DNA of 64,000 nucleotides from Shigella phage SHFML-26. The stretch lies in the sequence record KX130862; one strand, 5' to 3'. Shown here one piece after another: positions 36,971 through 38,790 of this stretch. A program made the position numbers and the translations under genes. Each line of letters opens with the position of its first letter. Positions within the stretch are counted from its first letter, which is position 1. A model generated the notes under the pieces. That model worked only from the letters and a program-made list of their open reading frames with translations, had not been told where the DNA came from and searched no databases.

Positions 36971-37092
36971 AGTTTTGTGAAAAAATTTTTAGGGAATTCT
37001 AGGGCAGGGATGGGCAATTAAAGGATAGGATAATATATTATAAAGAGTAGAAACTAAATGATGTCTAGAGAGGCCCGGAAAGGCCTAGATAC

Positions 37093-37122
37093 CAAAAAGC
37101 CCCAACCTTTCGGTCGGGGCTA
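37093..37122 (-). terminator. terminator of the tRNA/stable-RNA transcription unit
   Basis: Minus strand hairpin AGCCCCGACCGAAAGGUUGGGGCU followed by UUUUUGG; a second hairpin GGCCUUUCCGGGCC lies just downstream. Confidence 0.5.
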
Positions 37123-37126
37123 AGCC

Positions 37127-37433
37127 TTGCGGCAACCTTGTCGGGGTTCTACCTGCTAAGGCAAGTGTTTGTACGAAACGCCGGGATTCGAACCCGGTTA
37201 TTAAGCAGTTGACGCTACTCAATATTTTTAAAAGGCCATATCTCGACCATATCCGAACGTTCCGTCAAAAACGCTACTCGGCTTATGGCAAAGATATTTC
37301 CTCGAATCGATAATTCGGTGCGCCGTTTCTGTTGTGATAGTAAAGAGCCAGAACATAGTAAAACTGTGGGAGGAACTATACTCCAGGGAACATCAGTCCG
37401 ACGACTTGCCGGTAGCGACCCGGCTTCTTGTCT
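37127..37433 (-). ncRNA. putative small stable RNA region (like T4 species 1/2 RNAs rnaC/rnaD) downstream of tRNA-Arg
   Basis: Non-coding stretch with a tRNA-like T-arm (CCGGGTTCGAATCCCGG on the minus strand near 37181-37197) and strong hairpins; position matches the stable RNAs after tRNA-Arg in T4; boundaries approximate. Confidence 0.3.
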
Positions 37434-37435
37434 GG

Positions 37436-37508
37436 TCGAGGCAGTAGGGATCGAACCTACGACCCAGGACTTAGAAGGTCCTTGCTCTTCCTTCTGAGCT
37501 ATGCCCCG
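37436..37508 (-). tRNA. tRNA-Arg (anticodon TCT)
   Basis: Minus-strand cloverleaf: acceptor CGGGGCA/TGCCTCG, T-loop GGTTCGATCC, anticodon loop CTTCTAA. Confidence 0.8.
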
Positions 37509-37511
37509 TAA

Positions 37512-38177
37512 TTAAAATTTCATTTTTCGACCTTTAAACCATCCTTCTGGAATTGGGTCAGTTTTCTTAATACGTTTAGAAACTTTTTCATCTAATGAAT
37601 GAATCCACATCATACCAAATTGGGAATTCTTTTCACCTTTCTGGTGATTATTTTTAGCGTGAATTTCTTTCATTTTATTAATAGTTTCATCTGAATGGGA
37701 CTTACCCAAGAAAGATTTAGTATTTGAAAATTTCTCTCTATACTTAGGATTATCCCAAAGCTGTTTAAACCTTTCTGAACCCATTTTACGATATTTTTCT
37801 TTAAGGTCTGGGTCGTTCTCAAATCTGGTTTTAAAAGCGGCAGCTCCTTTTAAGGAAGCTTCTTTCTTTTTATCCAAATATTCTTTAGTGTTTAAATGGT
37901 CCCAACCACCTTCACCACCTAATTTCAAATTATAAACATCAGGGCGCTTTAAAAACTCTTCAGTCACAATATTCTTTTCTGACTCAAACATAGAGGTTTT
38001 ATCGTCAAAGAACTCTAATATTTCTTTAGAAAAATTTTCTATACCATACTTATCTTGGGCTCTTTTTAATAATTTACCAGAACCCATATATCCATCATCT
38101 AAATTTTCAGTTGAATGGGCGCCTATATAAATTTTATTATTAATTTTATTTGTTATTTTATAAGTGTAATAGAACAT
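37512..38177 (-). CDS. segB: GIY-YIG homing endonuclease SegB-like
   Basis: 221 aa; GIY-YIG module (YYTYKITN...IYIGAHST...GYMGSG); embedded in the tRNA cluster as segB is in T4. Confidence 0.8.
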   Translation of the reverse strand: MFYYTYKITNKINNKIYIGAHSTENLDDGYMGSGKLLKRAQDKYGIENFSKEILEFFDDKTSMFESEKNIVTEEFLKRPDVYNLKLGGEGGWDHLNTKEYLDKKKEASLKGAAAFKTRFENDPDLKEKYRKMGSERFKQLWDNPKYREKFSNTKSFLGKSHSDETINKMKEIHAKNNHQKGEKNSQFGMMWIHSLDEKVSKRIKKTDPIPEGWFKGRKMKF

Positions 38178-38219
38178 AAATATCTCCTATTTCTAAGAGT
38201 ATTTATGTTCTCAAAATAT

Positions 38220-38290
38220 GGCCCTGGGTGGAATTGAACCACCATCTGGCGATTATGAGTCGCTTGCTTGAACCTTCCAGCTACAGGGCC
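38220..38290 (-). tRNA. tRNA-Ile (anticodon CAT, Ile2-type)
   Basis: Minus-strand sequence GGCCCTGTAGCTGGAAGGTT...CTCATAA...GGTTCAATTCCACCCAGGGCCA. Confidence 0.75.
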
Positions 38291-38296
38291 TTGATA

Positions 38297-38369
38297 TGCT
38301 GATTGACGGAATCGAACCGCCGACCTTCTCATTACAAGTGAGTTGCTCTACCTACTGAGCTAAATCAGC
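38297..38369 (-). tRNA. tRNA-Thr (anticodon TGT)
   Basis: Minus-strand GCTGATTTAGCTCAGTAGGTAGAGC...CTTGTAA...GGTTCGATTCC...AATCAGCA. Confidence 0.8.
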
Positions 38370-38376
38370 GAAATTA

Positions 38377-38463
38377 CGGAGGCGATAGGATTTGAACCTA
38401 TGAGTCGCCGGAGCGACTGCCGGTTTTCAAGACCGGTGCATTAAACCACTCTGCCACGCCTCC
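38377..38463 (-). tRNA. tRNA-Ser (anticodon TGA)
   Basis: Minus-strand GGAGGCGTGGCAGAGTGGTTTAATGC...CTTGAAA...long variable arm...GGTTCAAATCC; G discriminator. Confidence 0.8.
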
Positions 38464-38465
38464 AG

Positions 38466-38539
38466 TCTCCGCGGCAGGATTTGAACCTGCGACATTCTGC
38501 TCCCAAAGCAGACGCTCTACCAAACTGAGCTACACGAAG
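38466..38539 (-). tRNA. tRNA-Pro (anticodon TGG)
   Basis: Minus-strand CTTCGTGTAGCTCAGTTTGGTAGAGC...TTTGGGA...GGTTCAAATCCTGCCGCGGAGA. Confidence 0.8.
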
Positions 38540-38550
38540 TAAATTAAATT

Positions 38551-38623
38551 TGAGCGGATAATGAGAATCGAACTCACATCATCAGATTGGAAGTCTGAGG
38601 TAATACCATTATACGATATCCGC
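38551..38623 (-). tRNA. tRNA-Gly (anticodon TCC)
   Basis: Minus-strand GCGGATATCGTATAATGGTATTACCTCAGACTTCCAATCTGATGATGTGAGTTCGATTCTCATTATCCGCTCA; matches T4 tRNA-Gly as I recall it. Confidence 0.85.
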
Positions 38624-38629
38624 AAACTT

Positions 38630-38716
38630 TGGTACGAGAAGTGGGACTCGAACCCACAAGGAAATCATTCCGCAGCATTTTAAGTGCTGTGCCTTTACCA
38701 ATTTGACCATTCTCGC
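38630..38716 (-). tRNA. tRNA-Leu (anticodon TAA)
   Basis: Minus-strand GCGAGAATGGTCAAATTGGTAAAGGCACAGCACTTAAAATGCTG...long variable arm...GGTTCGAGTCCCAC...ACCA (CCA encoded). Confidence 0.8.
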
Positions 38717-38717
38717 G

Positions 38718-38790
38718 CTGGGAATAAAGGACTCGAACCTTTGCATCCTGGAATCAAAATCCAGTGCCTTACCAACTTGGCTAATTCCCA
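38718..38790 (-). tRNA. tRNA-Gln (anticodon TTG)
   Basis: Minus-strand TGGGAATTAGCCAAGTTGGTAAGGCACTGGATTTTGATTCCAG...GGTTCGAGTCC...ATTCCCAG. Confidence 0.8.

Follow-up and report, generated by a model that had tools for sequence, protein, structure and literature searches.

The transfer RNA (tRNA) cluster of Shigella phage SHFML-26 was studied in a stretch of 64,000 nucleotides (nt) of sequence record KX130862; this whole stretch, numbered from its first letter, is called the window. The cluster comprises eight tRNA genes, segB, which codes for a GIY-YIG-type homing endonuclease, and the RNA genes rnaD and rnaC. Gene calls, homology, the boundaries of the segB cassette, codon statistics and RNA covariation were computed directly. 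In the whole 64-kb window ARAGORN detected exactly eight tRNAs, each lying on the minus strand and within the interval that an initial annotation, made from the sequence, had assigned to the cluster. The same eight were returned by Rfam (RF00005), a search proposed in that annotation, with 57-73 bits each at a gathering score of 29. tRNA-Gln (UUG) lies at 38717..38790 (67.4 bits in Rfam) and is followed by tRNA-Leu (UAA, type II) at 38630..38716, tRNA-Gly (UCC) at 38552..38623, tRNA-Pro (UGG) at 38465..38539, tRNA-Ser (UGA, type II) at 38376..38464, which adjoins tRNA-Pro, tRNA-Thr (UGU) at 38297..38369 and a CAT tRNA of the Ile2 type, a non-T4 allele, at 38219..38290. tRNA-Arg (UCU) stands apart at 37433..37508. 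Seven packed minus-strand tRNAs at 38220-38790 and a separate tRNA-Arg had been predicted, and the positions agreed almost base for base, as did all eight anticodons (TTG, TAA, TCC, TGG, TGA, TGT, CAT and TCT). The 3'-terminal CCA is encoded only by tRNA-Leu and tRNA-Arg. It is missing from the other six (Gln, Gly, Pro, Ser, Thr and Ile), tRNA-Gly being one C short of the CCA encoded in T4.

Between tRNA-Ile and tRNA-Arg lies segB (37512..38177, minus strand, 221 amino acids), identified by Pfam, PHROG and alignment with SegB of T4. On the other side of tRNA-Arg, rnaD (37317..37431) and rnaC (37172..37310) were located on the minus strand by mapping from T4. They are followed by a 3' trailer hairpin (37171-37122) and an intrinsic terminator (37121-37098 plus T-run), which together occupy 37090..37171 on the same strand. 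A structured non-coding region of about 300 nt with a tRNA-like T-arm, ending at a hairpin terminator, had been described here. It is real and corresponds to rnaD and rnaC of T4, with the T-arm motif GGTTCGAATCC at 37185-37195, within rnaC. Only its extent needed a small correction, as it consists of 260 nt of rnaD and rnaC and a trailer hairpin of about 50 nt, after which the terminator follows.

A region of 1.95 kb covering the cluster matched 920 phage records, nearly all of them Tequatrovirus, with Shigella phage vB_Shso_BCPShso_001 as the best database match (98.3%). The T4 record (NC_000866.4, 70908-72530) is collinear, with rnaC, rnaD, tRNA-Arg, segB and tRNA-Ile/Thr/Ser/Pro/Gly/Leu/Gln between e.8 and trna.2. 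The ARAGORN lists of the window and of the T4 locus were identical (Gln-Leu-Gly-Pro-Ser-Thr-Ile-[segB]-Arg, same anticodons), in line with the T4-like gene order that had been proposed. From its sequence the locus can be identified as the T4-type tRNA operon of Tequatrovirus, with eight tRNAs, segB, rnaD and rnaC, which is already known; evidence contradicting this identification was not found. The locus thus mainly confirms that the window originates from a T4-like phage, and the operon is recognizable from the raw sequence.

The CAT tRNA was called 'Met' by ARAGORN, a label that comes from the anticodon alone. Its acceptor stem (GGCCCUG.../...CAGGGCC-A) contains C4-G69 and C5-G68, and its anticodon arm (AGCGA-CUCAUAA-UCGCC) is identical to that of Escherichia coli tRNA-Ile(CAT), with which it also has the GGCCCU at the start of the acceptor in common. 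Bacterial Ile determinants are A73, C4-G69, C29-G41, A37 and A38, not the Met-type U4-A69/A5-U68 (PMC9976931), and by this standard the tRNA carries the Ile rather than the Met set. When it was compared with 5,426 complete E. coli genomes, 5,335 contained a match that covered 80% or more of it, and the best matches were annotated as tRNA-Ile. The Ile identity given in the initial annotation was borne out by both lines of evidence. The tRNA, which is 100% identical to the copy in T2, is of the Ile2 type and presumably modified with lysidine to read AUA.

Codon usage was compared by applying the same calling of open reading frames (ORFs) to the window, which gave 80 ORFs with 17,840 codons, and to a segment of 50 kb from E. 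coli K-12, which gave 40 ORFs with 14,572 codons. The 61 sense codons were ranked by the ratio of phage to host frequency, and the rank sum was tested against random sets of eight. All eight tRNAs read codons that end in A (CAA, UUA, GGA, CCA, UCA, ACA, AUA and AGA). Among the 61 codons AGA ranked first (8.9-fold), AUA second (5.7-fold), UCA third, GGA fourth, ACA sixth and UUA eighth, with CAA and CCA at ranks 22 and 27. A rank sum of this kind has a probability of about 1.5e-5 among random sets of eight. As judged from these frequencies, the tRNA set fits classical codon compensation, as in T4. The AT-rich phage uses most of these codons several-fold above the level of E. coli, and its tRNAs would top up the scarce isoacceptors of the host.

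The codon data are also compatible with the view that the tRNAs offset a general loss of host tRNA during infection, through host shut-off and turnover, and not codon mismatch as such. However, general depletion alone does not predict that precisely the tRNAs for the most phage-enriched, host-rare codons are retained, and this view is considered rather unlikely. A second alternative, which follows the initial annotation, is that the set mainly replaces or outcompetes host tRNAs that are destroyed by anticodon nucleases or similar defences, the anticodons then predicting which defences are resisted. The idea is sound in close relatives. The tRNA-Tyr beside segB in T6 neutralizes Septu PtuAB, and SegB amplifies the gene for this tRNA (PMC13096335). 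tRNA-Tyr of T5 counters retron-Eco7 and a phage tRNA-Lys counters PrrC170 (PMC11555353), and tRNA-Lys of T5 counters PARIS (PMC11464382). Documented targets of such defences are tRNA-Lys (PrrC, PARIS), tRNA-Tyr (retron-Eco7, Septu PtuAB) and the Lys, Met and Ala tRNAs (bacterial Schlafen) (PMC11555353, PMC13096335, PMC13056530). However, none of the eight isoacceptors is among the targets documented in this literature for enterobacterial tRNA-targeting defences, and the comparison of the anticodons with known nuclease targets, as had been suggested, gave no match to Lys, Tyr, Met or Ala (0 of 8). According to ARAGORN the cluster contains neither tRNA-Lys nor tRNA-Tyr, and T4, which has the same tRNA set, cannot escape Septu (PMC13096335). 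The anticodon loops were also compared with those of the E. coli K-12 isoacceptors. Seven of the eight were identical and only that of tRNA-Leu differed, at position 32, which implies that a nuclease recognizing the loop should cut the phage copies too. Mutation of the loop is the proposed signature of phage tRNAs that evade nucleases (PMC10264068), and with seven host-identical loops this signature is absent. Codon usage already accounts for which isoacceptors are present, and compensation for anticodon nucleases is unsupported for this set and is regarded as very improbable.

The product of segB contains a GIY-YIG domain (Pfam PF01541, residues 3-71, 25.4 bits at a cut-off of 22.6) and matched the homing endonuclease family phrog_314 (E = 7e-50). 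It is identical to SegB of T4 at 185 of 221 residues (84%) in an ungapped alignment over the full length (E = 2e-140), the genes being 83% identical at the nucleotide level. The presence of a segB-like GIY-YIG gene between tRNA-Ile and tRNA-Arg, as originally annotated, was confirmed by the domain and by this alignment. Comparison by blastn with the phages HMD-9, L008 and T2 revealed that segB and its short flanks form a 710-bp cassette (37509..38218, minus strand), which replaces the 182 bp with tRNA-Tyr and tRNA-Asn of segB-less arrays. HMD-9, T2 and L008 have no segB, and tRNA-Asn is present in them. The breakpoints are exact: homology breaks off where tRNA-Ile has its 3' end (38219) and restarts at the 5' end of tRNA-Arg (37508). 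Outside the cassette the identity to HMD-9 is 95.9% from upstream of tRNA-Gln through the last base of tRNA-Ile, and 96.4% from the first base of tRNA-Arg through the terminator.

SegB of T4 recognizes the motif GGTTCRANTCC in the T-arm of tRNAs, and its preferred site lies in tRNA-Asn of segB-less phages (Brok-Volchanskaya et al., PMC2330249). In crosses of T4 with T2L segB was inherited by up to 99.6% of the progeny (PMC2330249), and both site-specific cleavage and preferential inheritance have been demonstrated for SegB of T4 (PMC2330249) and of T6 (PMC13096335). The gene would behave selfishly, in that the enzyme cuts the tRNA genes of co-infecting segB-less relatives at the T-arm motif and the gene is then copied in by repair. 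Because segB sits where segB-less relatives have tRNA-Tyr and tRNA-Asn, the genome that carries it no longer contains tRNA-Asn, the preferred target. The window thus presents the expected end state of homing, with the endonuclease gene in place of its own best target. The catalytic residues Y17 and G19, which were mutated in the dead SegB of T6 (PMC13096335), are intact, and the allele of the window is inferred to be active in homing. The SegB motif GTTCSAWTY (RAWTSGAAC, PMC13096335) occurred seven times in the window against 5.5 expected, so that no window-wide enrichment was observed. Within the cluster it was found in tRNA-Gly, tRNA-Thr and rnaC. The displaced tRNA-Tyr is exactly what T6 uses against Septu (PMC13096335), and the locus provides a clean natural example of the cost of a homing endonuclease to its carrier, tRNA-Tyr and tRNA-Asn having been displaced by segB. 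As segB has replaced tRNA-Tyr, T4-like behaviour is predicted, with sensitivity of the phage to Septu and retron-Eco7, the escape route of T6 being closed without this tRNA.

The small stable RNAs encoded by rnaD and rnaC have gone by the names of species 2 and species 1, respectively, since the 1970s. For rnaC a fold with a minimum free energy of -50.6 kcal/mol was obtained, with z = -4.1 relative to shuffled sequence. Rfam returned no family at threshold for either RNA, and a permissive search of 36900-37520 gave chance-level matches only, besides tRNA-Arg. As a canonical tRNA, rnaC was not called by ARAGORN, and in Rfam it had only a sub-threshold match to tRNA-Sec (16.6 bits against 47, E = 2). 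Homologues of rnaC outside Tequatrovirus were found in tRNA arrays of Karamvirus, Tegunavirus and Gelderlandvirus, where they occupy the roughly 150 nt that are left without annotation between tRNA-Trp and tRNA-Gly (L004 1500-1650, L006 1481-1631 and L007 1494-1648). JS98 (Dhakavirus) was rejected as a source of a homologue, as it has rnaD and the terminator and no rnaC. The alignment of rnaC (A2) consisted of 12 distinct sequences, JS98 being left out; a pattern scan of IMG/VR had yielded only nine loci, so that the diversity of the alignment was modest.

In this alignment a closing stem of seven positions joins the 5' and 3' ends, and two conserved U.U pairs in it become U-A and C-G in Tegunavirus. 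Arm I is a long extended hairpin of roughly 70 nt and arm II has an invariant 6-nt loop, CGUCAA. The T-arm is canonical and, like that of a tRNA, lies immediately next to the 3' strand of the closing stem. Of the 49 pairs, 21 have kept their pairing while changing on both sides; column shuffles gave 8.1 +/- 1.7 such pairs and slid partners 2-5. In the alignment 93% of the cells could pair, against about 40% when the partners were slid. On this covariation rnaC is a four-way, tRNA-shaped RNA that is conserved in at least four genera of the Tevenvirinae. With its closing stem, T-arm and four-way junction it resembles a tRNA but is not one. An alternative fold with an internal acceptor strand, derived from the near-match to tRNA-Sec, was discarded. 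Its helix contained no compensatory pairs in A2, and six of the 12 sequences break it at a column that covaries in the 5'-terminal model.

The fold of rnaD was studied in an alignment of nine phage sequences (A3). Its 5' module, a hairpin CCGG-GUCGCUA-CCGG of which the outer pair covaries between A-U and G-C, is invariant, and so are the closing stem and the 3' module. The sequence of the central hairpin has been swapped wholesale between phages with the pairing kept (10 of 32 pairs compensatory), and the rnaD of the window, a T2-type variant, carries the T2-type centre.

RNAC and RNAD are still listed as RNAs of unknown function (PMC3014915, PMC9697503), and the failure to find one in 50 years would agree with the view that they are not functional RNAs. 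In that case they would be decayed tRNAs or spacer remnants, stable through their tRNA-like processing signals, or else the stretch would encode the 'hypothetical proteins' annotated in it. The folding of rnaD as a single sequence, which was not better than that of shuffles (z = -0.16), and the absence of rnaC from JS98 point in the same direction. So do ORFs of 42-45 amino acids that overlap both RNAs and are annotated as coding sequences in T2 and other records. However, the four-helix fold of rnaC has been kept through its 21 compensatory pairs over Tequatrovirus, Karamvirus, Tegunavirus and Gelderlandvirus with the arm-II loop invariant, a pattern indicating that it is the RNA structure, rather than a reading frame or nothing at all, that has been under selection. 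Besides, the 5' and 3' modules of rnaD are invariant in all nine phage sequences compared while the neighbouring tRNAs diverge. Experimental evolution of a T4-like phage on a semi-permissive E. coli, reported in 2025, yielded one convergent single-nucleotide polymorphism (SNP), in rnaD and in all lines (PMC12685909), the only hint of a function that was found for rnaD. A lack of function is therefore held to be highly doubtful. In the window the ORFs in question lie on the minus strand at 37085-37222 (45 amino acids) and 37228-37356 (42 amino acids), overlapping rnaC and rnaD, and T2 and many further phage records in GenBank list equivalent ORFs as 'hypothetical protein'. The covariation implies that these loci are RNA genes and that the small coding sequences called over them, which many GenBank records carry, are spurious.

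The four-way fold with its canonical T-arm, its acceptor-like closing stem and its compensatory pairs, the invariant arm-II loop and the convergent SNP in rnaD leave room for a further reading, in which rnaC, and perhaps rnaD, is a functional mimic of tRNA and not a by-product of processing. It might divert a host factor that binds tRNA, in the manner of a decoy or sponge, and so influence host range. Such a factor could be a defence nuclease directed at tRNA, or an enzyme that modifies or processes tRNA. This reading is a long shot. The structure of rnaC and its conservation across genera give a usable basis for asking what species 1 and species 2 do, a question that is 50 years old.

With respect to expression, a pattern search revealed a middle-promoter-like site at 38860..38886 (minus strand), with a MotA-box TTTGCTTTA, a spacer of 12 nt and the -10 element TATTAT. 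It lies about 70 nt upstream of tRNA-Gln, in an intergenic stretch of 97 nt that is 95.9% identical to T4, and from the known T4 middle-promoter consensus it is inferred to be a putative promoter. The MotA-box-like site overlaps the stop codon of an adjacent ORF of 174 amino acids (phrog_2290). A late-promoter-like sequence, CATAAATA (38200..38207, minus strand), which matches the T4 late consensus TATAAATA at seven of eight positions, is located just upstream of segB in the 41-nt spacer between segB and tRNA-Ile, and this spacer is 100% identical to T4. RNAC and RNAD are reported to accumulate late (PMC9697503), which the putative late promoter CATAAATA would fit. At the other end of the cluster the terminator scan detected a hairpin of 10 bp, 7 of them GC, followed by a T-run (37121-37098), where a hairpin terminator had also been noted initially. 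The 82 nt of trailer and terminator together folded with z = -3.4. This element is found directly 3' of rnaD in JS98 and is labelled 'terminator' in some relatives. A polycistronic minus-strand transcript would start at the promoter or promoters upstream of tRNA-Gln, end at the terminator near 37100 and contain the seven tRNAs, the segB messenger RNA, tRNA-Arg, rnaD and rnaC. Host enzymes would be expected to mature it by cleavage with RNase P, 3' trimming and addition of CCA to the six tRNAs in which it is not encoded.

Taken together, the locus is very probably a T4-type operon in which codon-compensating tRNAs, a selfish segB in the place of tRNA-Tyr and tRNA-Asn, and conserved rnaC and rnaD arise from the same transcript. 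Transcription, processing, homing activity and translational benefit are predicted in this interpretation from the T4 literature. Several points limit it. As to codon compensation, the enrichment of CAA and CCA (ranks 22 and 27) is no more than modest, one 50-kb segment of K-12 with mechanically called ORFs served as the host reference, and a correlation with codon usage does not prove a benefit. The promoters are consensus matches only. SegB of the window differs from that of T4 at 36 residues, concentrated at 100-180, and these differences mean that its specificity could differ as well. New in this analysis are the exact boundaries of the segB cassette, the structure of rnaC backed by covariation, the wider distribution of rnaC, and the invariant ends of rnaD around a swappable hairpin.

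tRNA-Arg of the window is the majority allele of Tequatrovirus, with 417 phage records at an identity of at least 95% against about 61 for the T4/T6 allele, and it differs from that of T2 by one base. In comparison with argU of E. coli K-12, which reads AGA, the anticodon and the 7-nt loop are the same and the body is argU-like (74% identity). The acceptor stem differs, the phage tRNA having C1-G72 and G3.U70. The stem (CGGGGCA/UGCCUCG) combines G3.U70 (37506/37439) with G2-C71, G4-C69 and A73, and it matches the identity set of E. coli alanyl-tRNA synthetase (AlaRS) save for C1-G72 instead of G1-C72; the 1:72 pair matters to this enzyme (PMC9976931). A20, C35 and U36, elements for arginyl-tRNA synthetase, are also present. 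Position 3 is a G in the window, the relatives L002, L008 and L010 and a Klebsiella Jiaodavirus, and an A in T2, HMD-9, SP18, JS98 and PP01. The two variants account for roughly half each of about 420 phage records, as counted with two 42-nt megablast queries whose bands at an identity of at least 99% (259 and 209) overlap, since end-trimmed alignments fall in both. The host tRNA closest to the phage tRNA-Ile is tRNA-Ile(CAT) of E. coli strain WP5-S17-ESBL-10 (L017 61-193), which shares the anticodon and the 7-nt loop and differs in the acceptor stem. Its gene is located 7 nt upstream of one for tRNA-Arg, and this pair of rare-codon tRNAs resembles the neighbouring Ile and Arg tRNAs of the phage.

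The surroundings of the cluster vary among phages. Many relatives contain an extra ORF of about 570 bp between e.8 and rnaC, and some several ORFs; PP01 (L003 1689-2252) and L008 are examples of such insertions. The insertion point corresponds to about 37090 in the window and explains why database matches fall in two pieces. L008 has two copies of the terminator hairpin sequence, one on each side of the inserted DNA, which suggests that insertion took place at the terminator or by its duplication. The T4 gene e.7 (about 400 bp) is missing at 36548-36595, so that e.8 comes nearly directly after e.6, and T2 carries another small ORF at this position. At the opposite side lies the ORF of 174 amino acids mentioned above (38877-39401, minus strand; phrog_2290, unknown function), which is absent here from T4 and from the closest match. 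It is present in 571 phage records, including those of Klebsiella and Aeromonas phages, and a phrog_2290 gene likewise stands next to the tRNA array in a Karamvirus. Further on, 40309-40866 takes the place of T4 ipI (internal protein I) but lacks homology to T4. The same hypervariable internal-protein locus is occupied by ip5 in PP01 and by Ip6 in T6. A Pfam search of the flanking ORFs gave nothing informative.

Among the closest known systems is the tRNA region of T4, with the same genes, order, strand and anticodons and the same flanking genes, e.8 and trna.2/trna.3. The synteny is imperfect, as e.7 is absent from the window and the one phrog_2290 ORF is added between tRNA-Gln and trna.2. 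The nucleotide identity is about 87-88% over 2.0-2.3 kb (88% over 2329 bp by blastn, with both flanks homologous), but it is very uneven across the array. In a global alignment of the T4 features onto the window, identity was 100% for tRNA-Ser, 98.9% for tRNA-Leu, 98.6% for tRNA-Gly, 97.8% for rnaC, 92% for tRNA-Thr, 89% for tRNA-Gln and 82% for tRNA-Pro, and fell to 70.6% for rnaD, 63.5% for tRNA-Ile and 43% (positional) for tRNA-Arg; the last three are different alleles. In T4 tRNA-Thr and tRNA-Gly encode CCA, whereas the copies in the window have lost it. Another known system comprises the segB-less arrays of the T2 and HMD-9 type. The array of HMD-9 reads Gln, Leu, Gly, Pro, Ser, Thr, Ile, Tyr, Asn, Arg and that of T2 Ile, Tyr, Asn, Arg, both without segB. 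Both the Gln-to-Ile block and the block of tRNA-Arg, rnaD, rnaC and terminator in the window are of this type, whereas tRNA-Tyr and tRNA-Asn stand in these arrays where the window has segB. In T6, which is annotated without tRNA-Pro and tRNA-Ser, the region reads Tyr, segB, Arg. A segB of the same family is embedded beside tRNA-Arg as in the window, but T6 has kept a tRNA-Tyr upstream of segB, which the window lacks, and carries the T4-type allele of tRNA-Arg.

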